From the NCBI GenBank assembly GCA_035308525.1, contig DATGGM010000144.1, positions 39,600 through 103,599 on the forward strand: a stretch of DNA of 64,000 bases, given 5' to 3'. This DNA is from Bryobacteraceae bacterium (GTDB lineage Bacteria; Acidobacteriota; Terriglobia; Bryobacterales; Bryobacteraceae). The notes under the pieces are model-generated. The model saw nothing but the letters and a program-made list of their open reading frames with translations. It had not been told where the DNA came from and searched no databases. The first letter of the stretch is position 1. The number at the start of each line of letters is the position of its first letter. This document shows positions 19,391-43,104 of this stretch, one piece after another. The position numbers and the translations under genes are program-made.

Positions 19391-19502
19391 TTACGCCCAA
19401 ACACATCCAGCGATCCCGTCTGTTATGAGCAGGTTGCAAGTCGTTTACGCACAGGCACACACGCCTTACGATGAAACCCATGGCGCTTACGCTCAAGCAC
19501 AT
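19391..19502. promoter_or_regulatory. Iteron-like direct repeats (consensus TTACGCnCAAnCACAT) in an AT-richer intergenic region upstream of the RepA-like gene
   Basis: ttacgcccaaacacat at 19391-19406; ttacgcacaggcacac at 19445-19460; ttacgatgaaacccat at 19466-19481; ttacgctcaagcacat at 19487-19502. The last three are spaced exactly 21 bp apart. TTACG half-sites recur at 19551 and at 19782 (overlapping the GTG start). A tandem atggttt-atggttt lies at 19591-19604. Confidence 0.45.
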
Positions 19503-19785
19503 GTCCGGCGCACCCCAAGGTATTCTTGCAAGACGTTGAAAAATATGATTTTACGTCACGCTTCGAACCTGTTTGAAGACCCTATATGGTATGGTTTATG
19601 GTTTGGATAAACTCTTACCAATAAGTATGCTCCCCGCACACCTGGCAGCGGATCATGGATGGTTTGGCGTGTGCTTCACAATAAAGACTATGGAGTCTCA
19701 TGGGCTTCATCGTAAATGTCTAGAACAAGATACCGGACTAATGTTACAAAAACAGAGGATGCACTTCCTGTTCTGAGGCGCTTAC

Positions 19786-21381: not shown

Positions 21382-21411
21382 TCGCCTGCATACAACACGG
21401 CGTGCGCTACA

Positions 21412-22269: not shown

Positions 22270-22300
22270 GAGCGCGCAATAGTAGAGTAGGTTGTTGGCT

Positions 22301-23347: not shown

Positions 23348-24129
23348 AACTCTCCGTCGTCATCCCGGCGCGCGATGAGGAAGGCTCCATCGAGCAGACC
23401 GTGGCGGAAGTGGCCCAGGCGCTGACCGGAGAGCAAATCCCGTTCGAGATCGTGGTGGTCGATGACGGCAGCTCGGATCAGACAGCTCGCTCTGTCCTCG
23501 AATTCGCGCAGCGCTGCGCGGGCGTCCGGCTGGTGAGCAATAACGGCCCGCACGGGTTTGGTCTGGCGGTGCGTGCCGGACTGGCGCAAGCCGCCGGCGA
23601 GGCCATCGCCGTCATGATGGCGGACGGCTCCGACAGCCCCCGGGACCTCGTGCAGTATTACCGGAAAGTGCAGGCAGGCTACGATTGCGCGTTTGGGTCC
23701 CGGTTCATCCACGGCAGCCGAATCGTGGACTATCCCGTGCACAAACTCGCCATCAACCGCATGGCGAACTGGTTCATCCGGATCTTGTTCGGGCTGCGAT
23801 ACAACGACATCACCAATGCTTTCAAGTGCTATAAACGGTCGGCTATAGACGGCATGCAGCCGCTCATCTCGCCGCATTTCAATCTGACCGTGGAGATGCC
23901 GTTAAAAGCCATCGTGCGCGGCTACACGTACGCGGTAGTGCCGATTTCGTGGACCAATCGCAAATCAGGCATGTCCAAGCTCAAGATCAAGGAGATGGGG
24001 AGCCGGTATCTGTTCATCGTGCTGTATCTGTGGCTGGAACGCCACCTTTCGCGCGGTGACTACTTGCGTCGGCGGGAACAGACCGAAGAGAACGCTGCGG
24101 CGATGTCGAGAAACAGCGCCAGCACCTAG
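23344..24129 (+). CDS. GT2 polyprenyl-phosphate glycosyltransferase (Dpm1/GtrB/ArnC-like)
   Basis: ATG 23344 overlaps the SDR stop (ATGA). MKLSVVIPARDEEGSI, VVVDDGSSDQT, MMADGSDSP (DxD region), NAFKCYKRSAI, and a C-terminal hydrophobic segment YLFIVLYLWL. Confidence 0.8.
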   Translation: MKLSVVIPARDEEGSIEQTVAEVAQALTGEQIPFEIVVVDDGSSDQTARSVLEFAQRCAGVRLVSNNGPHGFGLAVRAGLAQAAGEAIAVMMADGSDSPRDLVQYYRKVQAGYDCAFGSRFIHGSRIVDYPVHKLAINRMANWFIRILFGLRYNDITNAFKCYKRSAIDGMQPLISPHFNLTVEMPLKAIVRGYTYAVVPISWTNRKSGMSKLKIKEMGSRYLFIVLYLWLERHLSRGDYLRRREQTEENAAAMSRNSAST

Positions 24130-24245
24130 CCCAGTTCAGTCGCCGGTATGTGCCCGGGACGAACACCGCGCGGCAGGAAAGAATGCGCTCCAGCAGCGCG
24201 GCCGCAGGGCCGGAAACGTGCGGCTCTCGTTACAGGGAATGCGGG

Positions 24246-25133
24246 TCATCGGCAGGATTCACGTTTTCGCGCCGTGGCCATCAAGCCACTGGCGGATAGC
24301 AACATGTGCCGGTGCGCCAGCCCTTCGGGAACCATCCGCCGCAACAGGCCGAACAGTGGACTCAACAGCGGCACCCGGAACCGGTCAAAGTGGCGACAGA
24401 GGTAGTCGATCGTCAGGATCTTCCGGCTTGGCGCGATACGGATTTCATCAAAGCCGCACTGTTCCAGCAGGCGCCGCATGGAAGCGGGGCTAAAATAGAA
24501 CAGGTGTTCGACTTTATATTCCAGCCAGTGACGGCCCAGGAACCGCCGCGTCCAGCTATCCAGCGACGGCGTCACCAGCAAAACTTCGCCGGCGTTGGCC
24601 AGTAGTTCCCGGATCCGCATCAGGAAACCTATCGGATCGCGCACGTGCTCGATGACGTCTACGGCTACCACCGCGCCGAAATGGCTCGCCGGTAGTAGAA
24701 CAGCCTCCAGCGGGCCGGCCCGTACAGTCTCCGCACCCAGACGCCGGTTGGCGGCCGCCGCGGCGTGCGGCGAAACCTCGACGCCGCAAACCCGAAACCC
24801 GCGCCGCCGGGCTTCGAGCGACAGTTCTCCCTGGCCGCAGCCGATTTCCAGTAAATCCGTATCGCGCGGCGAGACCAGCCTCGACAGCGCGTCGATATAT
24901 AGTGCCCCGCTCGCGCTTTTCATCCGCGCCCGCCGCTCGGCGTCGACGCCATTTTCGTCACCCAGGAAATACCGATCGCCGTAAATGCCGTCCAAAACGG
25001 ACTCGTCCGGCTGCGGGTGCAGGAACTCAAACCTGCATTCGCGGCAAGCCCATAACGCATAGTTCCGAACGGCACGCGCTGAACAGGCTGGCCGTTCGCA
25101 TATCGGACAGCGAGGGGATAGGCTGCTTTGCAA
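24246..25133 (-). CDS. Class I SAM-dependent methyltransferase with N-terminal Cys4 zinc-ribbon
   Basis: 295 aa. CPICE...CRECRF at the N-terminus, motif I LLEIGCGQGELS, and VVAVDVIEHV. Confidence 0.8.
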   Translation of the reverse strand: MQSSLSPRCPICERPACSARAVRNYALWACRECRFEFLHPQPDESVLDGIYGDRYFLGDENGVDAERRARMKSASGALYIDALSRLVSPRDTDLLEIGCGQGELSLEARRRGFRVCGVEVSPHAAAAANRRLGAETVRAGPLEAVLLPASHFGAVVAVDVIEHVRDPIGFLMRIRELLANAGEVLLVTPSLDSWTRRFLGRHWLEYKVEHLFYFSPASMRRLLEQCGFDEIRIAPSRKILTIDYLCRHFDRFRVPLLSPLFGLLRRMVPEGLAHRHMLLSASGLMATARKRESCR

Positions 25134-25270
25134 AGGACTCCAGAGTATCAGGGTTTTAAACGCGCGGCGGCGCGATCGCCCCAGGTACGGATGATTAGTA
25201 CACTTCCGATGAAAACCGTGCCCAAAAGATGCGGGCAGGCGATATACTTCAGTCTTTGGGTCAAACCGTT

Positions 25271-28200
25271 ATGAAATCATCAAAGCATACAGGGCGGGCT
25301 GTGGCGCTGCTCTGTGTACTAAGCACGGTGTCAATGGCCGCGACGGACGTCAGAAGTGCGTCCGGAGAAGCAACCGCCCGCGCCTTGGCGAACTACGGCC
25401 GGCTGCCCTTGATATTCGAAGAGAATCGCGGGCAGTCGGATCCGCGCGTGAAGTTTCTATCGCACGGGAATGCTCACTCGGTTCTGTTCGCCCCTTCCCA
25501 GGTCCAGCTGAATCTGCAACCCGCGGGCAAAGCCTCCCGCCAATCCTCCATCCGCATGCGATTCCCGGGCGCCAGCCGATCTCCCGTTTTGACCGGCGGC
25601 GAGCTCCAAAGCGCCGTAAGCAGCTACTTTGTGGGCCACGATCCCTCGAAGTGGGTGTCCGGTACGCCGAACTACCGACGGGTTCGTTATCGAGAGCTGT
25701 ACCCCGGCGTAGACCTGGTGTTTTACGGGAATCAGGGCCAGCTGGAGTACGACTTCGTGGTAGCCCCGGGCGCCAATCCCGCCGCCATCCGCCTGAACTT
25801 TGACGGTGTGAACAGCATGCGTCTGGATTCCGATGGCGATTTGCTGCTCGGCACGGCAAATGGAGAGATCCGCCAGCACAAGCCCATCGTCTATCAGGAA
25901 AGCGCCGGCACGCGCCAAACTATCGCGGGCCGCTACGTGCTCCGGCCGCGCCACCACGTGGCGTTTCAGGTTGCGCGCTACGACCCGCACCTTCCGCTAG
26001 TGATCGACCCCACTCTCTCATTTGCTACGTACCTCGGCTCGCCCGGAGCCGAGGAGTTCGGCATTTCGGCGACGGCCACCACTGCCAGCTATCCGGCGGT
26101 TGCGGTGGACGTGCAAGGAAACGTGTACCTGACCGGATATACCGGCGACGGGACCAGCTTCAGCGGGCACCCTCAGATCCTGACAAGCACCGGCCCCGAA
26201 GCCGGCGGCGGCTCCAAGGTATTTCTGGTCAAAATGAATGCGGCGGGGACCGCATTGTTTTATTCGGTCGTCTTTGGTGGTGGCCTGACCGACGGCGGCG
26301 GCGGAGTCGCGGTGGACGCACAGGGTAATGCCTATGTTACCGGCTTCACTGGCTCCACCAATTTCCCGGTCACCACGGGTGCGCCGCAAACCGCCAACAA
26401 TGGCTCAAATAATGCGTTCGTGACTAAGGTGAATGCCAGCGGAACGGCGCTGCTTTACTCCACCTTCCTGGGCGGAAGCGGCAATTTCTACGGGCGGGCA
26501 ATCGGTGTCGATCATTCCGGCAACGCATACGTTACAGGAACCGCCGCGCCGGCCGGGAGCACACCTTTTCCCGTAGTCAACCCTATCCCGGGTAGTACGG
26601 CATCCTCAGGATTTCTCACGGAGGTCAACGCGGCCGGCACGGCATTCACCTACTCCACCTATCTGCAGGCGGGCATCGGATACGGCATTGCCGTGGATGG
26701 CAGCGCAAATGTTTATGTGGCCGGATCCACCGGAACCGTGCTGTCCCCTTCGCCGGCGCAGGGATACGTTCTGAAAGTTAACGCCGGCGGGACCCGTATC
26801 GATTATGGCCCGGTGCTTCTGGGACACAATACCGTGAGCCAAACCGTCGGCTTCGGAATCGCCGTGGACGCGCTCGGCAGTGCCTATGTAACCGGCATGA
26901 CCAACGATCCGAGCTTTCCGCAACTCAAAAACGCCGCGCAAGCCACGTATGGCGGCGGCTCGTATGACGCCTTCGCGGTCAAGTTGGATTCTGGCGGCAA
27001 TCTGGTTTACGGCACGTACATCGGCGGCCTGGGCGGCAATATTCTCCCGGAACGGGGATCGGGCATTGCAGTGGATGTGCTGGGGAACGCGTATGTGGCC
27101 GGCACCACCCAGTGCATCGGTTTTCCCACCACGAACTCGATTTCCGCGACGCGAAATGGCGGATCTGCCGTACTGATGCACGGCACCGTGCAAGGTGTGA
27201 CTTCAGAGTGGTCCCCCGCCACCCTGGCCGGCAGTTTCGACCAGGTCACCGCGCTGGCCTTCGATTCGAACGGCAACCTGTACGCCGGCGCTAGTGCAGT
27301 CTCCGCCGCTGGCGGTGGGATATACAAGCTGTTGTCCGGCGAGAGCGCTTGGACGTCTGCGTCGAGCGGCATCACTTCGACCACGATCGACTCCATCGCG
27401 GTGGACCCGAACAATGCGTCCGCCGTTTACGCGGCAGGCGGAGGTAACATTTATCAGACCTTCAATGGTGGCGGGAACTGGACCCAACTTCCCCAAGGCA
27501 TCGGTTCTCCCGCTGTTCTGGCGGTTGCCAAGACCAGCCCGTCGACGATCTATGTGGGCACCCCCACGAGTGTAATGTACAGCACAAACGCCGGCTCTAC
27601 CTGGAATAACCCGGTGATTGGGCCGTCCGGTACTATCAATGCCATTGTCGTAGATCCAAATAGTTCCAAAACGGCGTACGCGGGCACCTCCAAGGGCGCA
27701 TATATGACGGTTGATGCCGGCGTCAACTGGACTTTGGTGACCCATCTATCCAACGGTACGCTGGGAGCCGTGACCGGCCTGGCTGTCTACAGCGGCACCA
27801 ACCCGAGCACTGTATTTGCCGCGGCTAGCAACGGATTGTTCTACACCACAAACGCCAGTGCCGGTTGGTCGCCGGTAAGTTTCGCGCCGGGATTCACCGG
27901 GACGCCGCAACTCGTGGCCGTGGATGCCGCCGAAAATGTTTATGTGGCCTTACCAGGATCTGGTATCGTGACTGCCACCGGTGGAGGCACGCTGCAAAGT
28001 GACTGGAGCCCGCTCACCTACAACGGGCTTACCCAAAACCAGATCTTGGCCCTGTCCGTGCCGCCCACAGGGGCAGGAGCTTACGCCGGCATTGTTTCAG
28101 CCACCACGGCGTTCCTGACTGAAATCAGTCCGACCGGAGCATTCCTGTCTTCCACCTGCATTGGCGGATCCGACAACAACATGGGCCAGAGCATAGCGGT

Positions 28201-30040
28201 AACGCCGGGCTTCGTATATGTTTCGGGTCTGACTACCGCCACGAATTTCCCAGCCACCCCAAGCGCTATCCAGACGTCGAACGCCGGGCTCTATGATGCG
28301 TTCGTGATGGGGATCTATACCAATACCGTAATTACCTCATCGCCTGCAGGCGCCTCCATTACGGTGGCGGGAAGCGGCTGCTCTCCCGGACCCTATACAG
28401 CACCCGTGGGCCTTACATGGAATGCGGGAGTTTCTTGTACGGTCACCTTTACTGATCCGCAAAACATCGGCGGTATTGAGTACGAATTCCAATCTTCAAC
28501 CGTGGATGGCAGCGAGATCTCGCACGCCAACCCGATAACTGTTAACTCCGGCAATGGCTTTGTGCAGATTAATGCAACCTTCAGTGCGGTCACCGGTACC
28601 GGACCGGGAATGGCCACGCATTTCTCGGTGGCGGCCCCGTCAAACGCGACGGCGGGGACTCCCATTCAATTTACTGTGACGGCTCTCGATTCCAATAACC
28701 AGACAGCCACGAGCTATACCGATCCGGTGCACTTCACAAGCACGGATCCCGCGGCTACGTTGCCGGGGGATGGCACGTTGACCAATGGCGTAGGAACGTT
28801 CTCGGCGTCACTGGTTACTGAGGGCTCCATCACGATTACGGCCGGGGATTTATTGCAGCCCCTCATTAACGGGACCAGCAACAGCATCACGGTGTCCCTG
28901 TCTACCGCCGGGTTGCGTTTTGTTTCCATGCCTCCCTGCCGCGTGGTGGACACACGCGACAACAGCAAGCCTTCCGGCTTTGGTCCGCCATCCATGACCG
29001 GTGGTACGTCGCGTTCCTTTGCCGTTCCCAACGGACCTTGTGCAGGTATTCCGGGCTCCGCTCAGGCTTATGCACTGAACGTGACGGTGGTGCCCCAGGT
29101 TGAACTGGGCTATCTAACCATATGGCCTACCGGCCAAAACCAGCCACTGGCGTCGACGCTGAATTCCCTGGATGGGCGAATCAAAGCCAACGCGGCGATC
29201 GTGCCGGCAGGGAGCGGCGGGGCTGTTAGCGTCTTTGTGACCGACAACACGGACGTGGTCCTGGACATCAATGGTTACTTTGTGCCGGCTTCGGATTCCA
29301 GCGCATTAGCTTTCTATCCGATGGCTCCCTGCCGGCTGGTGGATACACGGCCGGGCGCGCCGTCCACCGTCATCACCGGACAGTTGGCGGCGGATAGTAC
29401 AACCACGCTGCCAATCCTGTCGAGCACTTGCAACGTACCGTCGGTGGCGCAGGCCTACTCGTTGAACTTCACGCTAGTGCCTCCAGCGCCAGTGGGGTAT
29501 CTGACGGTGTGGCCTACAGGTCAGAGTCAGCCGACTGTATCCACGCTGAACGACCTGACGGGAACGATTGTGGCGAACGCGGCGATAGAGCCGGCGGGAA
29601 CAAGTGGGGATATCAATGTATTTGTGACCAGCGCGACCGATCTGGTGGTGGATATCAACGGGTATTTCGCGCCCCCGGCAACCGGAGGCTTGTCACTGTA
29701 TAACCTGCCGCCGTGCCGGGTGCTGGACACGCGCACGCCTTTGGGTTCTCCGCCGTTCGTGGGGGCAATCAATGTGAACGTGCAGGGGAGCGGATGCGGG
29801 GGAACCGGTGCGGTGCTGGGGTATGTGTTCAATGCCACCGTGGTGCCGGCCGGCCCGCTGGGCTACCTGACATTATGGCCGCAAGGGAGCGCGCAGCCGG
29901 TGGTTTCGACGCTGAACGCGCTGGATGGAGCCATAACCAGCAACATGGCGATCGTACCCACGAACAACACCGATGTCAGTGCCTTTGCTACAAGCACCAC
30001 TTATTTGATCCTCGACATTTTCGGGTATTTTGGACCATAG
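25271..30040 (+). CDS. Giant secreted protein 1: N-terminal conserved domain, SBBP beta-propeller repeats, Asp-box/BNR-like propeller, then the shared C-terminal cassette (InlB-B-repeat-like, Ig-like, 3x unassigned module)
   Basis: ATG 25271 gives MKSSKHTGRAVALLCVLSTVSMAA (an alternative ATG at 25229 is also possible). SBBP-type turns: GNVYLTGYTG, GNAYVTGFTGSTNFPVT, GSAYVTGMTNDPSFPQL. Asp-box-like turns: FNGGGNWT, STNAGSTWN, TVDAGVNWT, TTNASAGWS. Cassette runs from VITSSPAGASITVAGSGC (28328) to the stop. Confidence 0.85.
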   Translation: MKSSKHTGRAVALLCVLSTVSMAATDVRSASGEATARALANYGRLPLIFEENRGQSDPRVKFLSHGNAHSVLFAPSQVQLNLQPAGKASRQSSIRMRFPGASRSPVLTGGELQSAVSSYFVGHDPSKWVSGTPNYRRVRYRELYPGVDLVFYGNQGQLEYDFVVAPGANPAAIRLNFDGVNSMRLDSDGDLLLGTANGEIRQHKPIVYQESAGTRQTIAGRYVLRPRHHVAFQVARYDPHLPLVIDPTLSFATYLGSPGAEEFGISATATTASYPAVAVDVQGNVYLTGYTGDGTSFSGHPQILTSTGPEAGGGSKVFLVKMNAAGTALFYSVVFGGGLTDGGGGVAVDAQGNAYVTGFTGSTNFPVTTGAPQTANNGSNNAFVTKVNASGTALLYSTFLGGSGNFYGRAIGVDHSGNAYVTGTAAPAGSTPFPVVNPIPGSTASSGFLTEVNAAGTAFTYSTYLQAGIGYGIAVDGSANVYVAGSTGTVLSPSPAQGYVLKVNAGGTRIDYGPVLLGHNTVSQTVGFGIAVDALGSAYVTGMTNDPSFPQLKNAAQATYGGGSYDAFAVKLDSGGNLVYGTYIGGLGGNILPERGSGIAVDVLGNAYVAGTTQCIGFPTTNSISATRNGGSAVLMHGTVQGVTSEWSPATLAGSFDQVTALAFDSNGNLYAGASAVSAAGGGIYKLLSGESAWTSASSGITSTTIDSIAVDPNNASAVYAAGGGNIYQTFNGGGNWTQLPQGIGSPAVLAVAKTSPSTIYVGTPTSVMYSTNAGSTWNNPVIGPSGTINAIVVDPNSSKTAYAGTSKGAYMTVDAGVNWTLVTHLSNGTLGAVTGLAVYSGTNPSTVFAAASNGLFYTTNASAGWSPVSFAPGFTGTPQLVAVDAAENVYVALPGSGIVTATGGGTLQSDWSPLTYNGLTQNQILALSVPPTGAGAYAGIVSATTAFLTEISPTGAFLSSTCIGGSDNNMGQSIAVTPGFVYVSGLTTATNFPATPSAIQTSNAGLYDAFVMGIYTNTVITSSPAGASITVAGSGCSPGPYTAPVGLTWNAGVSCTVTFTDPQNIGGIEYEFQSSTVDGSEISHANPITVNSGNGFVQINATFSAVTGTGPGMATHFSVAAPSNATAGTPIQFTVTALDSNNQTATSYTDPVHFTSTDPAATLPGDGTLTNGVGTFSASLVTEGSITITAGDLLQPLINGTSNSITVSLSTAGLRFVSMPPCRVVDTRDNSKPSGFGPPSMTGGTSRSFAVPNGPCAGIPGSAQAYALNVTVVPQVELGYLTIWPTGQNQPLASTLNSLDGRIKANAAIVPAGSGGAVSVFVTDNTDVVLDINGYFVPASDSSALAFYPMAPCRLVDTRPGAPSTVITGQLAADSTTTLPILSSTCNVPSVAQAYSLNFTLVPPAPVGYLTVWPTGQSQPTVSTLNDLTGTIVANAAIEPAGTSGDINVFVTSATDLVVDINGYFAPPATGGLSLYNLPPCRVLDTRTPLGSPPFVGAINVNVQGSGCGGTGAVLGYVFNATVVPAGPLGYLTLWPQGSAQPVVSTLNALDGAITSNMAIVPTNNTDVSAFATSTTYLILDIFGYFGP
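28328..30037 (+). repeat. Shared 3' cassette, copy 1 (570 codons); internal triplicated module at 28910-29302, 29303-29686 and 29687-30037
   Basis: Collinear with 31798-33510 and 35952-37664 at the protein level and largely at the nucleotide level. The internal repeat boundaries were read from GLRFVSMPPCR, ALAFYPMAPCR and GLSLYNLPPCR. Confidence 0.85.
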
Positions 30041-30083
30041 AGTCCTGACTCGGGTTCGAATGCACAGCCGGCCCGCCGCCTTC

Positions 30084-30116
30084 CCCGGCGCTGGGAGCCG
30101 GGTACTGGCGGTACCC
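30084..30116 (+). terminator. Two overlapping GC-rich hairpins downstream of giant protein 1 (possible weak terminator)
   Basis: cccggc-gctggga-gccggg (30084-30102) and gggtac-tggcg-gtaccc (30100-30116) share three G residues, so they are mutually exclusive. No U-tract follows. Confidence 0.2.
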
Positions 30117-30156
30117 GGAGTTTCGAGATAACAGCAGCGTTCACGATCCTGTCTAT

Positions 30157-33100
30157 ATGGGACCCGTTCGAAGGCGTGGCATTAACATGACAACCGGCCG
30201 CTGCTTGCGGCGGCTTTGTCGGGCACTATTGTTGGAATCATGCGGGCTGGCGGCCTTCTTCAACCTGCAGGCACAGGTCAATGTCACCACTTTTCACAAT
30301 GACAATGCCCGCGACGGCCAGAACCTCAGCGAATACGTCCTGACCCCTGCCAATGTCGGCTCGAGTCAATTCGGTCAGCTATTTGTTCAACCCGTGGACG
30401 GAAATGTTTATGCCCAGCCGCTGTACGTCTCCAACGTGCAGATCGCCGGGGCCACGCACAACGTGGTGTACCTGGTCACCGAACATGATAGTGTCTACGC
30501 TTTCGACGCCGACAGTAACTCCGGGCCGAACGCCGGACCGCTGTGGCACGTGAGCTTTATCAACCCGGCGGCCGGAGTCACCACTGTCAACAGTCAGAAC
30601 GATTTGAATTGCCCGAACATTGCCCCGGAAGTAGGCATTACCGGAACGCCGGCTATTGATCTGAGCTCGAACACGCTGTATGTCGTGGCCAAGACAAAGG
30701 AAAACAATACCTTCGTCCAGCGTCTCCATGCTCTGGATATCACCAGCGGAGTGGAGAAGTTCGGCGGGCCGGTAATGATCCAGGCGGTCGTGCCGGGCAC
30801 GGGAGCCGGCAGCAGCGGCGGACAGGTGACCTTCGATCCGCAGTGGGAGAACCAGCGTTCGGGCCTTTTCCTGCTGAACGGCATGGTTTACATTGGCTGG
30901 GCCGCACACTGCGATATCCCTCCGTATCACGGCTGGATGATGGCATATGACGCCCAATCGCTGCAGCAGGTCGCCGTGTGGAATGCCACGCCCAACGGGT
31001 CGGATGGCGGCGTGTGGCAGAGCGGTGCGGCGCCCGCCGTCGACACTGCGGGGAACATCTACCTGGCCACCGGAAACGGAACTTTTGATCTGAATACTGA
31101 CGGCCGGGATGCCGGCGACAGTGTGCTGAGATTCGGGGCCCCCGGCAGCGGCGTCGGTATTCCAATTCTGGACTACTTTACTCCGTACAACCAGGCCACT
31201 CTCAGCGTCGAAGATGCCGACCTTGGATCGGGAGGCGTCATCCTGCTGCCCGACCAGCCGCCAGGATCTCCGCACCAGCACCTGTTGGTCGAAATCGACA
31301 AAGAGGGTTCGGTATATCTGATTAACCGCGATAATATGGGTCACTTCAACGCCGCCAACAATATCCAGATCGTGCAATGGCTGCCCCAAATTCTCGGTGG
31401 CCTCTGGGGAACGCCGGCCTTCTGGAATAACAGGTTCTACGTGGGAGCCAGGAACGATTCCCTGCAGGCTTTTTTGTTTAACGCGAATAACGCCGGCATG
31501 CTGTCGACCTCCCCGATATCGGCCTCTCAGAACACTTTCTACTATCCGGGGACGACGCCGTCGATTTCAGCCAACGGAGACACGAACGCGATAGTGTGGG
31601 CTCTCGACGTGGGCAACAACTCCGCGATACTGCATGCCTATGATGCCACCAACCTCGCCACTGAGCTGTATAACTCGACTCAGAATGGGCCGCCGCCCGG
31701 GCCGTCAATCAACTTCATTGTCCCCACCATCGCCAACGGCAAAGTGTTTGTGGGTACGGCTACCCAGCTGGCGGTCTATGGCCTGCTCACCAATCGCGTC
31801 ACGATTACGTCATCGCCTTCGGGCGCGTCCCTGACGCTGGCGGGAACCGGCTGCGTTCCGGGAATCTACACAACACCGGCGTACCTGACCTGGAGCGCGG
31901 GAGTTTCCTGCACCATCAATTTCACGGACCCACAAAAGATAGCCGGCATGGAATACGAGTTCCAGTCTTCTGGTGTGAATGGCAGCGCGGTGTCTCACGC
32001 CAACCCGCAGATCCTTTATTACGGCGGCGGTACCATGCTGATCAATGCCACTTTCGGTGTGGTTAGTGGCACCGGGCCGGGAACAGCCCAGCATTTCTCG
32101 GTGGTGGCTCCGTCCGTCGCGACGGCGGGGACGCCTGTTCAGTTCACGGTGACGGCATTGGATGGTTCTGGTCATATGGTCACCACCTATACCGACCCGG
32201 TGCACTTTGCCAGTACGGACCCGGCCGCCGTGTTGCCTGGGGATGCCGTGTTGACCAATGGCGTAGGAACATTTTCGGCAGCGTTGCTCACGGCGGGCGT
32301 GGTCACGCTCACAGCCAGCGACTTGTTGTGGCCGGCCATCGCCGGAACCAGCGGCGGTATCGCAGTGTCGCAGTCCACCGCGGGATTGCGTTTCGTTACC
32401 ATGCCTCCCTGCCGCTTGGTGGATACACGGGATAACCTCAAGCCGGGGGGCTTTGGTCCGCCGTCCATCTCCGGAGGCGCGTCGCGTTCCTTCGCCATCC
32501 CTGACGGACCGTGCGCCGGTATCCCTGCCGCGGCCCAGGCTTATTCTCTCAACGTTACGGTGGTGCCGCATGGCGAACTAAGCTATTTGACCGTGTGGCC
32601 CACAGGCCAGAGCCAACCTCTTGTATCCACACTGAATTCTTTGGATGGTCGCATCAAAGCCAACGCCGCCGTCATCTCAGCCGGCACCGCCGGTGCCATA
32701 AGCGTGTTTGCCACCAACAATATGGACCTGGTTTTGGACATCGACGGTTATTTCGTACCCGCCTCGGACTCGGCGGCCTTGGCTTTCTATCCGATGACTC
32801 CCTGCCGGCTGGTGGACACACGGCCGGGTGCGCCGTCCACTATCATCACCGGACGGTTGGCGGCCAATAGCACGACCACGCTGCCGATCCCGTCGAGCAG
32901 TTGCCAGGTTCCGTCGGCGGCGCAGGCCTACTCACTGAACTTCACGTTGGTGCCGCCGGGACCGGTGGCTTATCTGACGGTGTGGCCTACCGGCCAAAGT
33001 CAGCCGATTGTATCCACGCTGAATGACCTGACGGGGACGATCGTGGCGAACGCCGCAATCACTCCGGTGGGGACGGAGGGCGATATCGATGTATTTGTGA

Positions 33101-33513
33101 CCGGCGCGACGGATCTGGTGGTGGATATCAACGGGTATTTCGCGCCTGCGTCAACTGCAGGATTGTCCTTATACACGCTGCCGCCGTGCCGGGTGCTGGA
33201 CACGCGTATGCCGCCGGGTTCCCCGCCTTTCACTGGGGCAATCAATGTGAACGTGGAGGCGAGCGGATGCGGGGGAACCGGTGCGGCGCTGGGGTATGTG
33301 CTCAATGCCTCCGTGGTACCGGCGGGCCTGCTGGGCTACCTGACGTTGTGGCCGCAAGGGAGCCCGCAGCCGGTGGCATCGACGCTGAACGCGCTGGACG
33401 GGGCGATTACCAGCAACATGGCCATCGTGCCCACCGGCAACACGGAAGTCAGCGCGTTTGCCGCGGCCAACACATATCTGATTCTCGACCTGTTTGGCTA
33501 TTTTGCGCCCTAA
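30157..33513 (+). CDS. Giant secreted protein 2: PQQ/BamB-like beta-propeller head plus the shared C-terminal cassette
   Basis: 1118 aa (alternative ATG at 30187: MTTGRCLRRLCRALLLESCGLAAFFNLQAQ). The head starts VTTFHNDNARDGQN...GNVYAQPLYV...VYLVTEHDSVYAFDA, typical of PQQ-like propeller proteins. Cassette runs from VTITSSPSGASLTLAGTGC (31798). Confidence 0.85.
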   Translation: MGPVRRRGINMTTGRCLRRLCRALLLESCGLAAFFNLQAQVNVTTFHNDNARDGQNLSEYVLTPANVGSSQFGQLFVQPVDGNVYAQPLYVSNVQIAGATHNVVYLVTEHDSVYAFDADSNSGPNAGPLWHVSFINPAAGVTTVNSQNDLNCPNIAPEVGITGTPAIDLSSNTLYVVAKTKENNTFVQRLHALDITSGVEKFGGPVMIQAVVPGTGAGSSGGQVTFDPQWENQRSGLFLLNGMVYIGWAAHCDIPPYHGWMMAYDAQSLQQVAVWNATPNGSDGGVWQSGAAPAVDTAGNIYLATGNGTFDLNTDGRDAGDSVLRFGAPGSGVGIPILDYFTPYNQATLSVEDADLGSGGVILLPDQPPGSPHQHLLVEIDKEGSVYLINRDNMGHFNAANNIQIVQWLPQILGGLWGTPAFWNNRFYVGARNDSLQAFLFNANNAGMLSTSPISASQNTFYYPGTTPSISANGDTNAIVWALDVGNNSAILHAYDATNLATELYNSTQNGPPPGPSINFIVPTIANGKVFVGTATQLAVYGLLTNRVTITSSPSGASLTLAGTGCVPGIYTTPAYLTWSAGVSCTINFTDPQKIAGMEYEFQSSGVNGSAVSHANPQILYYGGGTMLINATFGVVSGTGPGTAQHFSVVAPSVATAGTPVQFTVTALDGSGHMVTTYTDPVHFASTDPAAVLPGDAVLTNGVGTFSAALLTAGVVTLTASDLLWPAIAGTSGGIAVSQSTAGLRFVTMPPCRLVDTRDNLKPGGFGPPSISGGASRSFAIPDGPCAGIPAAAQAYSLNVTVVPHGELSYLTVWPTGQSQPLVSTLNSLDGRIKANAAVISAGTAGAISVFATNNMDLVLDIDGYFVPASDSAALAFYPMTPCRLVDTRPGAPSTIITGRLAANSTTTLPIPSSSCQVPSAAQAYSLNFTLVPPGPVAYLTVWPTGQSQPIVSTLNDLTGTIVANAAITPVGTEGDIDVFVTGATDLVVDINGYFAPASTAGLSLYTLPPCRVLDTRMPPGSPPFTGAINVNVEASGCGGTGAALGYVLNASVVPAGLLGYLTLWPQGSPQPVASTLNALDGAITSNMAIVPTGNTEVSAFAAANTYLILDLFGYFAP
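31798..33510 (+). repeat. Shared 3' cassette, copy 2 (571 codons); internal modules at 32383-32775, 32776-33159 and 33160-33510
   Basis: The 35-nt string gatctggtggtggatatcaacgggtatttcgcgcc is identical at 33112-33146 and 29639-29673. I count 19 differences in the last 117 aa against copy 1. Confidence 0.85.
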
Positions 33514-33581
33514 GACCAGGATTACGCGGAACCTGAGGTGTAAGCCCTAAAGAGATCTGGTGAAATTACCGATCTAGTGGC

Positions 33582-36500
33582 ATGAACTCGCTTGTTCGTG
33601 CCTGCCTGGTCGCCGTTCTCTTGGCCGGTTGGTCCTTCGCGTTCTCGGCCCGAAGTTACGAAAACCTCCCGTTGACATTTGAACGGCGCGCGATGGAAAC
33701 CGGCGGGCAGCGATTCGTCGCGCATGTTTCCGGGCACAGGGTGGCATTTGGCTATTCCGGCGCAGTCTTCGAGAGCCCCGGCCCCGGCGGTAATCGGCCC
33801 GAACCGGTGCTGCGTTTCGCGGGTGCCCGCCCGCACACGCTGCCGCAAGCGGCCGGACCACAAGCCGGTAGCGCCAACTATTTTCTGGGCCCGCATCCCG
33901 AGCAATGGCGCACCGGTGTCCCACTGTTCAGGCAAATTAAATATCCCGGCCTTTATCCTGGCATTGACCTGATCTTTTACGGAAACCAAAACCGGCTGGA
34001 ATACGATCTCGTTGTGGCGTCCGGCGCATCCTGGCGAGCCGTCCGCTTGGCCTTTAGCAGCGCCGAAGATGTTCAAATCGACGGCCACGGCGCCCTGAGA
34101 TTGCGGACCGGTTCCGGCTGGATCACGCAAGCGCAGCCGGTCATCTATCAGCAAGCCGGCGCAGGCCGGCGGCGGATCTCCGGGCATTATGCCGTCACCG
34201 GCGTCAATGAGGTTGGGTTCGAAATCGGCCCTTATGACCCGGGCTTGCCGTTGATCATCGATCCGACACTGGCATTCGCCAGCTACCTGGGCGGCAGCGG
34301 CGACGATTACGGCCATGCGGTTGCCATCGACGGCCAGGGATGCGCTTACGTCGTTGGAGAAACCGGATCGGCGGATTTTCCCATGCTGAATCCCGAACAG
34401 GCCTCGCGGTCGGGCGCCAGCGACGTGTTTGTCACCAAGTGGAATGCAAGTGGTACGAGCTTGGTCTACGCCACCTATATCGGCGGCGGCAGCCGGGATG
34501 TGGGCCTGGGCGTGGCGCTGGATGCGGCCGGCAACGCCTACGTCACCGGCTTCACCTATTCCGCGGATTTCCCTCTCACCCAGGGAGTCTTGCGCGGCAA
34601 TTTTGCGGGCATCAGCAAAGCCTTCGTCCTCAAGTTGAATCCGAGTGGCAACGCACTGATTTACTCGACTTTCCTGGGCGGCAGCGGCGATGATTACGCC
34701 GCCGGAATCGCCGTGGACCCAGCCGGGGAAGCGCACATTGCCGGCTATACCTCCTCTATGGATTTTCCAGCCACAGCCGGGGCGTTTCAGCCCACTTACG
34801 GCGGCGGTTCTTATGACGGATTCATGGCCAAGCTGAACCCGGCGGGATCCGCCCTCGTCTATGCCACCTACCTGGGAGGCATCGCCAACGATACGGCCGC
34901 CGCTATCGCGCTGGACCCGTCCGGGAATATCTATGTGACGGGCCAGACGCAATCATCGAATTTTCCGACGTTGAACCCCGTCCAGCCCGTCAATAGCGAA
35001 AGTGACGCCTTCGTCGTGAAGATGAATGCGGCCGGCCGGGTTGCCTACGCTACGTTTTTGGGGGGAACGGGACTCAATAGCGGAACCGCCATCGCGGCGG
35101 ACGCGGCCGGGAATGCGTATGTCACCGGCTTTACCGACGCATCGGATTTTCCGGTCACCTATGGCGCCTACCAGATCAACAACAGCAGCTCTTATGATGT
35201 CTTTGTAGCCGTATTGAACCCATCCGGCAGCAGCATACTGAGCGCGACCTACTTGGGCGGCTCCGGATCGGATATCGGTTACGGAATTGCGCTGGATGGA
35301 TCGGGTAACGTCTTCGTCGCAGGTTCGACGAACTCGATCGACTTCCCCGTGTACGCTCCCATGAGTTCTGGATATCAGGGTAATGGCGATGCCTTCGTCG
35401 CCTCTTTTAATAATGGATTGACCAGCCTGTTGTATAGCGCTTATTTCGGGGGAAGCGGGAGCGATGTGGCGGCCGGCGCCGCCGTGGACAGCACTGGAAA
35501 TGCATTCATCACGGGATGGACGAGCAGCGGAACATCGTCCGTGGGCCTGCCCGTCACGCCAGGTGCATTTCAACCCATGGGTTTAGGCGGCTTAGACGCC
35601 TTTCTGGCGAAAATCGCCAGCCTTGCTGATCCGCCCCAGTCCCCCGCGGCGAACACGAGTATGCCGGCGGCGGTAACCAGCAGCACCGCCACACTGACCG
35701 GATCCGTGAATCCGAATGGGGCTGATACTCAAATCTACTTCAGCTACAGCACGAACAGCTCCATGAATGGCAGCATCTCCACACCTCGGCAGGATGCCGG
35801 CGCCGGTACGGGTACGCTGCCGGTCAACGCCGGCATCACAGGTCTCATCCCAAACACCACATATTACTTTCAAGCCCGCGCGTCCAACAGCGCGGGGAGT
35901 GCACAAGGGGGAGTGATGAGCTTCACGACGGCTTCACTTGCCGCTGTCGCCGTCACCCTGACTTCATCGCCGTCCGGCGCTTCCATCACGTTGGCGGGTA
36001 CCGGCTGCGCTCCCGGGAGTTATACAACATCGGCGGATGTGACCTGGAGCGCGGGAATTGCATGTACGATTAGCTTCACGGATCCACAAAGTATCGGTGG
36101 CGTGGAATACCAGTTCCAGTCCTCCACGGTCAATGGCAGCGCGGTCACTCATGCCAATCCGATTATTCTTGACCCGGCCGGCGGTGCTCTGTCGATCAAT
36201 GCGGTCTTCACCGCGGTCAACGGTACCGGCACCACCACGCATTTCTCGGTAATGGCTCCGTCCACCGCCACGGCAGGGATACCCCTCTCATTCACCGTGA
36301 CGGCGCTGGATGCGAGTAATAGAACAGTCACCACCTACTCCGATCCGGTGCACTTCACCAGCACGGATCCCTCGGCGGTTTTGCCTGGCGATGCGCTGCT
36401 GAGCAAAGGCGTAGGGACCTTTTCGTCGTCGTTGGTCACTGTGGGCACAGCCACGCTCACCGCCGGCGACCTGTTATCATCCGGCATTAACGGTACCAGC

Positions 36501-37667
36501 GGGGCTATCGCGGTGTCACAGTCGGCCGCGGGATTGCGTTTTATATCGATGCCGCCCTGCCGGGTTGTAGACACACGGGATGCTACCAAGCCGTCCGGCT
36601 TTGGTCCGCCGTCGATGGCCGGCGCCACATCGCGTTCCTTTCCCTTTCCCGAGGGACCTTGCGGCATTCCAGCCACCGCCCAGGCGTATTCACTGAACGT
36701 GACTGTTGTTCCGCATGTCGGCCTGGGTTACTTGACCATCTGGCCGGCCGGCCAGAGTGAGCCGGTGGTCTCGACGCTGAATTCTCTGGATGGCCGGATC
36801 AAAGCCAACGCGGCGATTGTCCCGGCGGGTAGCCAGGGAGCCATCAGCGTGTTTGCCACCAATGCTACCGATGTGGTGCTGGATATCAACGGCTACTTTG
36901 TGCCGGCTACGGATTCCGGCGCCTTAGCTTTCTTTCCGATGCCGCCCTGCCGGTTGGCCGACACGCGGCCAGGCGCGCCGTCCACCATCATCACTGGGAT
37001 ATTGGCGGCGGGGAGCATCACCACGCTGCCGGTCCTGTCAGGCAACTGCCATGTACCGCCGGCGGCCCAGGCGTATTCGCTGAACTTCACACTAGTGCCG
37101 CCTGGACCGGTGGCATATTTGACCGTGTACCCCACGGGAGAGAACCGGCCTACGACATCGGCTCTGAACGATCTGACGGGGACCATCGTCGCCGATGCTG
37201 CGATTGCACCGGCGGGCTCCGGAGGCAGCCTCGATGTTTTTGTAACCCAAACGACGGACCTGGTGGTGGATATCAATGGATACTTTGCACCCGCTGCGGC
37301 AGGAGGGTTGTCGCTGTATAGTCTGCCGCCCTGCCGGGTGCTGGACACGCGCACGCCGCAGGGTACGCCGCCTTTCGCAGGAGCCATGAATGTAAACGTG
37401 GAGGCCAGCGGATGCGGAGGAACGGCTGCGGCGCAGGCGTATGTCTTCAATGCCACGGTAGTCCCGGCTGCTTCGCTGGGCTACCTGACGTTATGGCCGG
37501 AAGGGAGCGCGCAGCCGTTGGCTTCGACCTTGAACGCGCTGGATGCAGCCATCACCAGCAATATGGCGATCGTGCCCACGAACGACACGAACAACACGGA
37601 AGTCAGCGCCTTTGCGGCGAATAATACCTACTTGATTCTCGACGTGTTCGGTTATTTCGCGCCGTAA
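33582..37667 (+). CDS. Giant secreted protein 3: N-terminal conserved domain, SBBP repeats, FN3-like unit, plus the shared C-terminal cassette
   Basis: 1361 aa. Signal-like MNSLVRACLVAVLLAGWSFAFSA. LPLTFE...GNQNRLEYDLVV is similar to the protein 1 N-terminal domain. Many GNAYVTGFT..DFP turns. FN3-like LTGSVNPNGADTQIYFSYS...LIPNTTYYFQARASNSAG. Cassette runs from VTLTSSPSGASITLAGTGC (35952). Confidence 0.85.
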   Translation: MNSLVRACLVAVLLAGWSFAFSARSYENLPLTFERRAMETGGQRFVAHVSGHRVAFGYSGAVFESPGPGGNRPEPVLRFAGARPHTLPQAAGPQAGSANYFLGPHPEQWRTGVPLFRQIKYPGLYPGIDLIFYGNQNRLEYDLVVASGASWRAVRLAFSSAEDVQIDGHGALRLRTGSGWITQAQPVIYQQAGAGRRRISGHYAVTGVNEVGFEIGPYDPGLPLIIDPTLAFASYLGGSGDDYGHAVAIDGQGCAYVVGETGSADFPMLNPEQASRSGASDVFVTKWNASGTSLVYATYIGGGSRDVGLGVALDAAGNAYVTGFTYSADFPLTQGVLRGNFAGISKAFVLKLNPSGNALIYSTFLGGSGDDYAAGIAVDPAGEAHIAGYTSSMDFPATAGAFQPTYGGGSYDGFMAKLNPAGSALVYATYLGGIANDTAAAIALDPSGNIYVTGQTQSSNFPTLNPVQPVNSESDAFVVKMNAAGRVAYATFLGGTGLNSGTAIAADAAGNAYVTGFTDASDFPVTYGAYQINNSSSYDVFVAVLNPSGSSILSATYLGGSGSDIGYGIALDGSGNVFVAGSTNSIDFPVYAPMSSGYQGNGDAFVASFNNGLTSLLYSAYFGGSGSDVAAGAAVDSTGNAFITGWTSSGTSSVGLPVTPGAFQPMGLGGLDAFLAKIASLADPPQSPAANTSMPAAVTSSTATLTGSVNPNGADTQIYFSYSTNSSMNGSISTPRQDAGAGTGTLPVNAGITGLIPNTTYYFQARASNSAGSAQGGVMSFTTASLAAVAVTLTSSPSGASITLAGTGCAPGSYTTSADVTWSAGIACTISFTDPQSIGGVEYQFQSSTVNGSAVTHANPIILDPAGGALSINAVFTAVNGTGTTTHFSVMAPSTATAGIPLSFTVTALDASNRTVTTYSDPVHFTSTDPSAVLPGDALLSKGVGTFSSSLVTVGTATLTAGDLLSSGINGTSGAIAVSQSAAGLRFISMPPCRVVDTRDATKPSGFGPPSMAGATSRSFPFPEGPCGIPATAQAYSLNVTVVPHVGLGYLTIWPAGQSEPVVSTLNSLDGRIKANAAIVPAGSQGAISVFATNATDVVLDINGYFVPATDSGALAFFPMPPCRLADTRPGAPSTIITGILAAGSITTLPVLSGNCHVPPAAQAYSLNFTLVPPGPVAYLTVYPTGENRPTTSALNDLTGTIVADAAIAPAGSGGSLDVFVTQTTDLVVDINGYFAPAAAGGLSLYSLPPCRVLDTRTPQGTPPFAGAMNVNVEASGCGGTAAAQAYVFNATVVPAASLGYLTLWPEGSAQPLASTLNALDAAITSNMAIVPTNDTNNTEVSAFAANNTYLILDVFGYFAP
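35952..37664 (+). repeat. Shared 3' cassette, copy 3 (571 codons); internal modules at 36531-36920, 36921-37304 and 37305-37664
   Basis: Same domain order and motifs as the other copies. Carries one 1-codon deletion (EGPCGIP) and one 3-codon insertion (NDTNNTEV) relative to copies 1 and 2. Confidence 0.85.
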
Positions 37668-37886: not shown

Positions 37887-40016
37887 ATGGCTCAAACACC
37901 ATCGCTCGTCAATTCACCTCCTAAGAGCGCCGCGACGAGAGTCTTTTTTTCAACGCTAGCCGGCAATCCAGGCTTGTATGCCTGGGTGGGCCTCGTGTTC
38001 GCGATCGCATGTGTCTTTAAAGCATTGCCGTCGAAATCAATGTACCTTTGGGTGTCCAGCGATACCCTGTGGCCGGTGGATCTCTTTATCGATACGCTTC
38101 ACGACGGATTTTCATTTCACGGCTGGTTCTTTTCGGTTGGGCCCTGTTGGATTCCTGACATCGTTCTTGTAGGCCTGTGCTATCTACCGCTGCGAGACCC
38201 GATTTTAACGACCCTCGTCGCGGGAGCGCTCCACCTCATCATCCTGGCCGCTGGGTTGTGCCTGTGCTGGCGCGCGCTGAGGCTGGCATACCGGAAGCTG
38301 GCAGACACGTTAACGCTGGCCTCCGGGATCGCCATTACTCTATGGGTTGCGTTCCATTCCGATGTGCTGTATCCGGGGTTGTACCAGTTCCTGCTGCCGC
38401 AAACGCATGTCGGAAATCTCATCATGCATGTCTACGCCATCTGGCTGGCGCTGCTGCTGATCCAACTCCCGCGCGGTCGTAGGCGCGTCTTTGCCGCCGC
38501 TGGATTTTCCGTCGTCTGCATGCTGGCGGGTTTGAGTAATCTGATGTTTTTCCCGCACACCGTCGTCCCGCTTTCCATGGCAGCGCTGGCCCTGGCCCTT
38601 GCGGGAGCCCTGCCGGTGCGGCGGGCCGCACTGCCCGTGCTTCTTGCCTGGCCGTCGGCGGTGGCCGGGGCAGCCGCCTACCGGATCTTCTTTCCGGCCA
38701 TGGGTCTCGGTGCACAGTCGTCGATCGGATATGCAGCCTGGGGAAAAGCCGCGCGTACCTTTGTTGTAGGTGCGTTTGCTGCATTTGCCCGTTTTGACCT
38801 GCTGCATATTGCCGCCGCGTTGTGGTTTGCCGCCTGCGTGCTTGGAGGCGCGATTCTCTTACGGCGCCTCCGTCGTGCGAAAAACGTTCAACCCGAACGT
38901 CGTGTGCTCCTCGTGTTTTTTTTCTTCACGTCTGCCGCGGCGTCGCTTCTCGGACCGGCCACTATGATCATCGGCGGAAGCAATGGCTTGACGCAGTTCA
39001 ATAACTACATGTGGACGATGCACTACATGCACCCCACATTCCTCCTTCCGTTGCTCGCCTGGCCTTCGCTGCTCGCCTTAGTCCCTGCGTTTTCCCTTCC
39101 TCGGGTCATCCGGCGCGCCCTACGCGCTTCAGCCGCGCTGGCATGCGTGATTGTGCCGTTGATGGCCTTCGAGCGTCTTCCGGCCCCAGCCTTCCCCTTG
39201 TCGCAGTATGCGCCCGAGTTTGTCCGCGCTCTCGACCGGGAAGCCCGGCAGTATGGAATAAGGTACGGACTCGCGGGCTATTGGCAGGCGCGCCTCATCA
39301 CGCTGCTCTCGCGCACGGGACTGCGAGTGTACCCGGTGGATGGGTCGATCAACCCCTTCCTGATCGTCTCCAACCGGGAGTGGTTCGCCAAATCGCTCGA
39401 AAACCGGTCGCGGAAGCCCTGCTTCAGTTTCGTAGTCCTCAATGACCCGTTATGGAAGCTTACCCGTGCCACCGCCGTAGAGCACGCTGGGGAACCCTCA
39501 AACCAATTCGACGCCGCGGGCGTGCCCGTGCTCGTGTATGCAAAAGAAGAAACCGGGCATGTTGTGCCGCGCTGCGACGCGTTGACGTTGCCCAACGTCG
39601 ATACGACCATCACAATGGACCGGCGGTTGTCCGGCTACAGAAGCGCTATGAGCAGTCCTGTCGGAATGATTCGAGCGACGATCTCGGAAAGGATGCGCCT
39701 TCCTGTCCGTATCAGCAATCCCGGAAAAGAACCTTGGACTAGTGTCGGTAGTTTCCCGGTGACACTGAGTTATAAATGGTTCAAAGACGGCCGGATGTTG
39801 CCGATAGAAGGCGAGCGTACATCTCTGCTGGAAGCCTTGCTTCCCGGCGCGACAGCGTCATTGTCCGCCCGCGTCGTGGCGCCGCCGGAGCCGGGCAGTT
39901 ATACCCTTCGCTTTTCCCTCGTTCAAGAGGGCATTACCTGGTTCATGTCAGCGGGAGACAGGACCCTGGACATCCCAGCCAGCGTGATCGCAACGGGCGC
40001 TCAGCTGGGGCGCTGA
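37887..40016 (+). CDS. Polytopic membrane protein (putative GT-C-fold glycosyltransferase) with a C-terminal soluble region ending in an Ig-like domain
   Basis: 709 aa. Roughly a dozen hydrophobic segments over the first ~430 aa, with an acidic first loop SSDTLWPVDLFIDTLHDG. The C-terminal ~115 aa (~39670-40013) share the ...LSYKWF...YTLRFSLVQEGITWF pattern with the end of the 46981-48291 protein. Confidence 0.5.
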   Translation: MAQTPSLVNSPPKSAATRVFFSTLAGNPGLYAWVGLVFAIACVFKALPSKSMYLWVSSDTLWPVDLFIDTLHDGFSFHGWFFSVGPCWIPDIVLVGLCYLPLRDPILTTLVAGALHLIILAAGLCLCWRALRLAYRKLADTLTLASGIAITLWVAFHSDVLYPGLYQFLLPQTHVGNLIMHVYAIWLALLLIQLPRGRRRVFAAAGFSVVCMLAGLSNLMFFPHTVVPLSMAALALALAGALPVRRAALPVLLAWPSAVAGAAAYRIFFPAMGLGAQSSIGYAAWGKAARTFVVGAFAAFARFDLLHIAAALWFAACVLGGAILLRRLRRAKNVQPERRVLLVFFFFTSAAASLLGPATMIIGGSNGLTQFNNYMWTMHYMHPTFLLPLLAWPSLLALVPAFSLPRVIRRALRASAALACVIVPLMAFERLPAPAFPLSQYAPEFVRALDREARQYGIRYGLAGYWQARLITLLSRTGLRVYPVDGSINPFLIVSNREWFAKSLENRSRKPCFSFVVLNDPLWKLTRATAVEHAGEPSNQFDAAGVPVLVYAKEETGHVVPRCDALTLPNVDTTITMDRRLSGYRSAMSSPVGMIRATISERMRLPVRISNPGKEPWTSVGSFPVTLSYKWFKDGRMLPIEGERTSLLEALLPGATASLSARVVAPPEPGSYTLRFSLVQEGITWFMSAGDRTLDIPASVIATGAQLGR

Positions 40017-43091: not shown

Positions 43092-43104
43092 AAGCTGTGC
43101 GATC

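Follow-up and report, generated by a model that had tools for sequence, protein, structure and literature searches.

In a 64,000-nucleotide stretch of DNA from the metagenome-assembled genome of a soil Bryobacteraceae bacterium (contig DATGGM010000144.1, positions 39,600 to 103,599; hereafter the window), three adjacent genes, P1, P2 and P3, code for secreted propeller-type proteins whose different N-terminal heads are all followed by the same C-terminal cassette. The cassette is a module: at orthologous junctions in related genomes the same heads carry non-homologous tails, the tails within one array match each other, and cassette copies 1 and 2 of the window share an old gene-conversion tract. 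On balance we hold it probable that the tail is an exchangeable address or anchor module on a secreted propeller array, one that likely binds the cell-surface glycan of the same locus.

Three secreted proteins and one cassette

An earlier reading of the window, made from its letters only (the sequence-only reading), had described three co-oriented open reading frames with gaps of 116 and 68 bp, and these are present as neighbouring plus-strand genes: P1 (25271..30040), P2 (30157..33513) and P3 (33582..37667). The signal-peptide-like N-termini claimed for all three are visible in the translations. Behind the signal peptide, P1 has DUF7948, an SBBP propeller and a Sortilin/BNR-like propeller, P2 has a PQQ-type beta-propeller head of ~547 aa, and P3 has DUF7948, seven SBBP repeats and an FN3-like unit; the shared cassette follows in each. 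Family matches agree with the head types given by the sequence-only reading (SBBP and BNR-like in P1, PQQ-type in P2, SBBP and FN3-like in P3), with a weak Pfam propeller match for P2, homologues of which are named 'pyrrolo-quinoline quinone'. That the heads differ in kind stands for head 2, which is unrelated to heads 1 and 3 in protein comparison, but not for heads 1 and 3, which are paralogues (39% identity over 660 aa, E = 2e-112; both DUF7948 plus SBBP).

The P1 reading frame opens at 25229, and the start codon at 25271 is supported because at least 20 P1 orthologues begin at the equivalent residue. A public protein 100% identical to P1 (P0387, 'hypothetical protein VKR61_11070 [Bryobacteraceae bacterium]') starts at the residue equivalent to 25385 and leaves off the signal peptide (window 25229-25427); this annotation is probably truncated at its N-terminus. 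A promoter and terminator scan of 24000-41000 found sites no more numerous than in shuffled sequence and does not inform on transcription units.

Over its 570 residues the cassette consists of a ~96-aa two-cysteine beta-sandwich, a Big_1-like Ig domain (a weak match, E = 0.0017) and three ~125-aa repeats (R1–R3), each spanning 'PCRxxDTR' to 'D(I/L)xGYFxP' and 40–57% identical to the others within one chain. In copy 1 the two N-terminal domains, together called segment A, lie at 28328..28903 (+), with the beta-sandwich at 28328-28615 and the Ig domain at 28616-28903, and the triple repeat follows at 28904..30037 (+; R1 28904-29290, R2 29291-29677, R3 29678-30037). Copy 2 (31798..33510, +) is divided into segment A (31798-32376), R1 (32377-32763), R2 (32764-33150) and R3 (33151-33510), and copy 3 (35952..37664, +) into segment A (35952-36524), R1 (36525-36908), R2 (36909-37295) and R3 (37296-37664).

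Comparison of the window with itself by blastn returns three collinear matches of 1.70–1.73 kb each: copies 1 and 2 are 77.9% identical in nucleotide sequence over 1702 nt without a gap (28331-30032 versus 31804-33505), copies 1 and 3 are 74.8% identical (28334-30030 versus 35961-37657), and copies 2 and 3 are 74.5% identical (31797-33517 versus 35951-37671). The corresponding protein identities are 77%, 74% and 75%. The 5' borders are sharp, with no relation among the DNA sequences preceding 28328, 31798 and 35952, and similarity fades directly past the stop codons, with TAAGACC after copies 2 and 3. The sequence-only reading had thus correctly described collinear ~1.71-kb 3' cassettes that are far more alike (74–78% in nucleotides) than the heads upstream of them, and similarity that ends just after the stops; it was also exact in counting 19 differences between copies 1 and 2 over the last 117 residues and in placing an identical 35-nt string (29639-29673 and 33112-33146), which encodes the conserved DLVVDINGYFAP motif. 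This string is the longest identical run among the copies, and ~0.4 such runs are expected at the local identity of ~85%; taken as a sign of recent conversion, it is rejected, being at about the chance level for that identity.

The three C-termini read ...DIFGYFGP, ...DLFGYFAP and ...DVFGYFAP and have no hydrophobic tail. The absence of a recognisable sorting signal, reported by the sequence-only reading, is borne out by Pfam and NCBIfam scans alike: no NCBIfam model for PEP-CTERM, LPXTG, the type IX secretion system C-terminal domain (T9SS CTD) or TIGR03437 matches the cassette, and none of the three proteins has a terminal motif with a transmembrane helix. The SLH model PF00395 matches neither P1–P3 nor, at E <= 10, the repeats.

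Tail exchange at orthologous junctions

Outside the window, head 2 is a common stand-alone propeller of ~530 aa in Terriglobia. Its 15 closest homologues are 68–72% identical and include 12 with an SLH C-terminus and two with FG-GAP, and the triple repeat is found on none of the best 120. Two FG-GAP-tailed P2 homologues, P0269 and P0272, were rejected as array members, as they do not lie in the array. One head-2 homologue lies in L084-L086, a locus whose genes are orthologues of those in the left arm of the window, with 80% identity between L086 and the window in a 531-aa protein, 74% in a methyltransferase, 90% in an epimerase, 75% in a family 2 glycosyltransferase (GT2) and 66% in a second methyltransferase. 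The orthology continues into the array: head 1 is 61% identical over all 1033 aa and head 2 is 71.5% identical, and nucleotide homology ends at 28302 and 31788, 3–9 codons short of the cassette starts. In L086 both P1 and P2 have a 282-aa tail of three SLH repeats and an Ig domain, and the two tails are 75.5% identical to each other.

The same P1(SLH)-P2(SLH) pair is seen in L087 and L088, and P1 and P2 SLH tails of the same locus are 72–89% identical. In L093, all three heads are present in window order (P1 67%, P2 69% and P3 75% identical to those of the window), all with FG-GAP/VCBS tails, those of P1 and P2 being 80–84% identical. Loci can be grouped by tail into an SLH type (S), with P1(S)-P2(S) in L084-86, L087 and L088; an FG-GAP/VCBS type (F), with P1(F)-P2(F)-P3(F) in L093; and a triple-repeat type (T), with P1(T)-P2(T)-P3(T) in the window and P1(T)-P3(T'), lacking P2, in L002, L091 and L092. 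Since matched tails recur with three non-homologous types, selection for a common C-terminal function is indicated; and since the head side has no homology, the matched tails on unrelated heads do not come from simple homologous conversion.

Tail type is unstable among the heads. In 120 head-1 homologues, discrete tail classes follow one junction: 58 proteins have FG-GAP, 19 have SLH and 12 have the long triple-repeat cassette. On a neighbour-joining tree of 82 P1 heads the tail type changes at least 16 times (16–18 in bootstrap replicates, against a possible minimum of 2 and a mean of 27 with shuffled labels). A further head-1 homologue, P0501, is annotated by JGI as 'TIGR03437 family', the Solibacter C-terminal domain, and the head-1 family seems to have at least a fourth tail type.

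Gene content varies as well, P2 being missing from L002, L091 and L092 and P3 from the SLH-type loci. The proposal of a variable array holds on an evolutionary time scale, as P2 and P3 content differs among relatives; rather than a fixed set of three genes with congruent head and tail trees, the orthologous loci have varying content and tails that are incongruent with their heads. In-frame stops or frameshifts are seen at several positions of L001, L002 and L092 in otherwise conserved genes, for example in the P3 heads and in the glycosyltransferase gene GT4a; such breaks probably reflect errors of long-read assembly rather than pseudogenes.

The P3 tails illustrate the incongruence. In L002, L091 and L092, P1(T) is followed directly by P3; over the triple repeat, P3 tails from L091 and L092 show 73% identity to each other and 52–61% to P1-type tails, and the P3 tail of L002 is a divergent, frameshifted triple repeat (50–56% identical to copy 1). 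The P3 triple repeat of the window (WIN_P3) is 78% identical to those of WIN_P1 and WIN_P2 and groups with them and apart from L091_P3 and L092_P3, so that the tail tree is incongruent with head orthology. Bootstrap values are 85% for {WIN_P1, P2, P3}, 92% for {WIN_P1, P2}, 100% for {L091_P3, L092_P3} and 98% for the exclusion of P3-type tails from the P1-type clade. As the WIN_P3 tail nests with its own P1 and P2 while the P3 tails of relatives diverge, the cassette has spread within this lineage.

Synonymous divergence fits a cassette that is younger than the heads. The proportion of synonymous differences (pS) is 0.47–0.55 among the cassette copies, compared with 0.72 between heads 1 and 3, 0.61–0.70 between window and L086 orthologues, and a saturation level of 0.74. 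Cassette identity, which the sequence-only reading had set against the expectation for old paralogues, is typical of triple-repeat modules of the same genome generally (mean 71–72%), than which the window copies are no more alike; pS is below that of heads 1 and 3.

One old gene-conversion tract is found between copies 1 and 2 at 29316..29800 (+), with its partner at ~32789-33273 in copy 2. A maximum chi-square test, bearing out the gene conversion expected by the sequence-only reading, gives a value of 19.7 with a breakpoint at ~29316, a height reached in 0 of 2000 permutations (p < 0.0005), and remains significant at third codon positions alone (p = 0.002). Copies 1 and 2 agree at 32% of the informative sites up to the breakpoint and at 53% beyond it, and pS is 0.18–0.38 within the tract versus 0.5–0.76 upstream, with a lowest 60-codon value of 0.18. 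Of the claim that gene conversion has spread or homogenised the cassette, spread onto unrelated heads and this one tract stand; recent homogenisation does not, for dS, the number of synonymous substitutions per site, is 0.74–0.98 among the copies, the longest identical run is 35 nt, and there are no near-identical tracts.

In L088 (6030-12442), the two SLH tails, on P1 and P2, have 89% identity to each other, versus 68–76% to the same tails in other genomes. Homogenisation of tails is thus plainer and younger in L088 than in the window, and other tail types too undergo it in episodes.

The repeat family, its predicted fold and the glycan locus

The triple repeat is the mark of a very large family that is still unnamed in Pfam and NCBIfam. 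A single window repeat has no Pfam match even at E <= 10 and matches no PDB sequence in single-sequence or profile searches, and the cassette has no NCBIfam family at E <= 0.01; among representatives of clusters formed at 50% identity, the same repeat matches 24,259 at E <= 1e-3, of which 13,560 also pass E <= 1e-10. Of the 150 best matches, nearly all align in three stretches. Exactly three complete units are present in 108 of 119 close homologues, and the protein ends exactly at the last unit in 114 of the 119. The nearest relative in another protein is an R1 unit for 108 of 119 R1 units and an R2 unit for 95 of 119 R2 units; repeat positions are orthologous across proteins, and the triplication is therefore ancestral and fixed. 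An apparent single repeat copy (41–48% identical) at 14222-14647 (-) in L001, beside the orthologue of the window gene at 37887 (o37887), is one of the rare departures from the three-unit pattern.

Genome matches are all in Acidobacteriota metagenome-assembled genomes, bar one contig that is probably mis-binned, and the family spans Bryobacterales, Acidobacteriaceae and Korobacteraceae, among others. Several triple-repeat modules per genome and tandem arrays of 2–5 are common, with highly varied heads including CarboxypepD_reg, BACON, FG-GAP, subtilase, GSDH, CAP and SBBP; one member, P0011, is head-less and consists of a signal peptide and the cassette alone. Mean module identity is 71–72% within a genome and 61% between genomes, and membership of the same locus makes no difference.

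AlphaFold2 predicts the whole cassette as all-beta, with a predicted local distance difference test score (pLDDT) of 85 and a predicted template modelling score of 0.74. The linkers between the repeats have pLDDT values of 91–93, which suggests a rigid triple unit, and the single repeat is modelled as an eight-strand jelly roll with a pLDDT of 93. Its best fold match in the PDB is the Bd2133 fibre tip of Bdellovibrio (8OND/8OK3), with a template modelling (TM) score of 0.60–0.61, a beta-sandwich packed as a trimer (PMC10769870). The next matches are Bc2L-C (TM 0.34–0.37), BclA, BxpB and a phage cement protein, and then jelly-roll capsids and CBM6/CBM35. Among viral models (BFVD), tail-fibre tips and C1q-domain proteins match the single repeat best, with TM scores of 0.55–0.69 and E-values down to 2e-5; the tail-fibre tips reach 0.69, and TM values of 0.33–0.50 are also recorded for C1q-domain proteins. 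In Pfam, neither the C1q nor the TNF model matches the repeat, and a fold search with the whole cassette returns generic multi-Ig matches alone, at TM < 0.17. From the models we infer that the three repeats pack as one rigid, single-chain, pseudo-trimeric lectin-like unit.

The window is a Wzx/Wzy-type polysaccharide locus, and the array sits between a conserved and a variable arm. The left arm (17324..25133) includes genes for an Asn synthase, the 531-aa protein, a methyltransferase, an epimerase, a GT2 protein and a minus-strand methyltransferase, and its proteins are 66–91% identical across SLH-, triple-repeat- and FG-GAP-type loci. The 531-aa protein (19786-21381, +) has a weak, sub-threshold RPA match and is strongly conserved, with 80–90% identity in each of the orthologous loci L086, L091, L092 and L093.

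The right arm (37887..45369), with a membrane protein (37887-40016), a minus-strand FkbM-type methyltransferase and two family 4 glycosyltransferases (GT4), has orthologues confined to the triple-repeat-type loci L001 and L092 and missing from SLH-type L086 and FG-GAP-type L093. Right arms go with locus type: a sulfotransferase and a pyruvyl transferase in type S; a protein with 12 membrane spans, GT4a and GT4b in type T; and DegT, GT2 and a PglD-like protein in type F. A PS_pyruv_trans-GT gene lies beside the SLH-type arrays in L084-86 and L088, wherever the downstream sequence suffices, and there is no PS_pyruv_trans gene in the window, L001, L002, L091 or L092. A homologue of the PS_pyruv_trans-GT gene of L086 is missing from the window, where tblastn with an SLH tail finds nothing either. 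The gene at 37887-40016 (+) encodes a protein of 709 aa with ~12 predicted membrane spans, followed by an Ig-like domain at the C-terminus; neither Pfam nor NCBIfam has a family for it. Its 40%-identical orthologue in L001 adjoins P3, and the C-terminal domain is present there in two additional copies. The protein may act on the locus glycan as a GT-C-like transferase or polymerase.

The idea that the family always goes with glycan loci is rejected, as P0105 and P0007 sit among housekeeping genes. Elsewhere in the glycan locus of the window, a DUF4915/TIGR03032-family protein is encoded at 46960-48291 (+). The GC content dips to 0.54 at 18–20 kb versus 0.63–0.67 in the outer flanks, consistent with a horizontally exchanged polysaccharide island.

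A proposed anchor module and its relation to known systems

How the array came about and may work can be outlined as follows. The cassette, in which two Ig-like spacers precede three jelly-roll repeats in tandem that are predicted to form a pseudo-trimeric lectin-like unit, would hold differing heads at one destination, most likely the cell-surface glycan made by the surrounding locus, in the way in which SLH trimers tether surface proteins to a pyruvylated polymer. It was installed by recombination at the boundary between head and tail domains: in this lineage a P1-type cassette replaced the native P3 tail, and the same cassette was joined to the P2 head, which elsewhere bears SLH, FG-GAP or no tail. 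Subsequent gene conversion between copies 1 and 2 left the ~0.5-kb tract, and selection would keep all array members on one tail type. Pseudo-trimer packing, glycan binding and self-anchoring are the parts of this outline that we infer; the anchoring role of SLH, the tail-linked right arms and the Wzx/Wzy-type locus together lead us to favour a glycan-binding anchor.

Several points weigh against that interpretation. The similarity in fold is weak (PDB E-values near 3e-3), and the trees were made by neighbour joining from metagenomic contigs, of which some are frameshifted. The covariation of tails with glycan genes rests on two SLH-, five triple-repeat- and one FG-GAP-type loci, and many family members lie outside glycan loci, beside housekeeping genes. 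FG-GAP/VCBS is not a known anchor, and positional equivalence indicates a common C-terminal function, not anchoring as such. A bolder form of the proposal, in which the triple repeat is a new Acidobacteriota anchor class, a single-chain, pseudo-trimeric C1q/TNF-like lectin interchangeable in function with SLH trimers, and whole arrays of Bryobacteraceae switch between SLH, triple-repeat and FG-GAP tails together with the glycan genes of their locus as a 'surface-coat haplotype', seems to us less likely than not.

It seems unlikely to us that the triple repeat is a lectin- or CBM-like tip for external (plant, fungal or prey) glycans, carried by released adhesins or enzymes whose matched tails reflect a shared external target. 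The likeness of the fold to adhesive fibre tips, fucose lectins and CBM6/CBM35 would suit such a role, as would the FG-GAP tails at the same position and the many members in non-glycan contexts; but the module is conserved (61% between and 71–72% within genomes) and the heads are variable, the reverse of what is usual in recognition tips, at orthologous junctions the module stands in for SLH, an established self-anchor, and the heads are mostly propellers and Ig-like domains, not glycoside hydrolases. The strictly C-terminal position, with nothing beyond the conserved GYFAP end in 114 of 119 homologues, and the occurrence on thousands of signal-peptide proteins inside one phylum would also fit a secretion or sorting domain, an analogue of the T9SS CTD that is recognised by export or attachment machinery and perhaps removed. 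At ~375 aa (570 aa with spacers), however, the module is far above known sorting-domain sizes, it has no match among NCBIfam sorting-signal models and a fold known from binding and trimerisation domains, and the head-less P0011 suggests that it works alone; a sorting role seems rather improbable.

We give very little credence to a further account, that the three genes are ordinary old tandem paralogues, duplicated from one ancestor, with tails kept alike by purifying selection and no transfer of the cassette. Head 2 has no relation to the other two heads, orthologous heads bear non-homologous tails in other genomes, pS between heads 1 and 3 is saturated (0.72) and that of the cassettes is 0.47–0.55, the P3 tail is incongruent with the P3 head, and a mosaic tract is present; these outweigh the high dS (0.74–0.98), the copy identity typical of same-genome modules and the paralogy of heads 1 and 3, which speak for such an account. 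The reading of the tail as an exchangeable anchor on the array is the one that we retain as probable.

Acidobacteriota are among the most abundant soil bacteria and, to our knowledge, almost nothing is known of how they display proteins at their surface. A module that takes the position of an SLH anchor in orthologous genes gives a concrete functional lead for this very large unnamed family. The locus is also a natural experiment, in which three non-homologous tails have been swapped on the same heads and matched per array, and it can be used for studying how proteins and glycans of the surface evolve together; should the anchor role hold, proteins could be displayed on Acidobacteria by means of the module.

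The general kind of system is already known, that is, modular surface proteins with a common anchoring module; the triple-repeat module and the three-way, locus-matched tail exchange appear to be undescribed in the literature searched, and no description of the repeat turned up in those searches. Like TIGR03437 (Soli_cterm), PEP-CTERM and the T9SS CTD, the cassette is one C-terminal element on many secreted proteins of a lineage, but no NCBIfam model matches it, and the protein, which ends in GYF[AG]P, lacks both a PEP motif and a membrane-spanning helix at its C-terminus. In Clostridioides difficile, the CWB2 module of the Cwp proteins consists of three tandem repeats that form a pseudo-trimeric anchor on ~29 paralogous surface proteins, and many Cwp genes cluster beside a glycan locus. 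Fold and phylum are different, no similarity in sequence was detected, and the likeness lies in a three-repeat module on varied proteins near glycan genes.

SLH trimers bind pyruvylated secondary cell-wall polymers, as in Sap and EA1 of Bacillus anthracis and SpaA of Paenibacillus alvei (PMC6081394, PMC6030368). As in the SLH systems, a terminal module of three tandem repeats is common to proteins that differ in their functional parts, and glycan genes adjoin the genes of these proteins; in P1 and P2 orthologues, SLH occupies the exact junction of the cassette. There is no relation in sequence or fold, the SLH fold being helical and the repeat described here an eight-strand jelly roll, and the window is without a pyruvyl-transferase gene. 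In fold, the jelly-roll repeat is closest to the Bd2133 tip, the N-terminal lectin of Bc2L-C, BclA and phage tail-fibre tips, most of which are also C-terminal, all of which are trimeric and several glycan-binding (PMC10769870); those, however, are homotrimers of separate chains, whereas here three diverged copies are joined in one chain.

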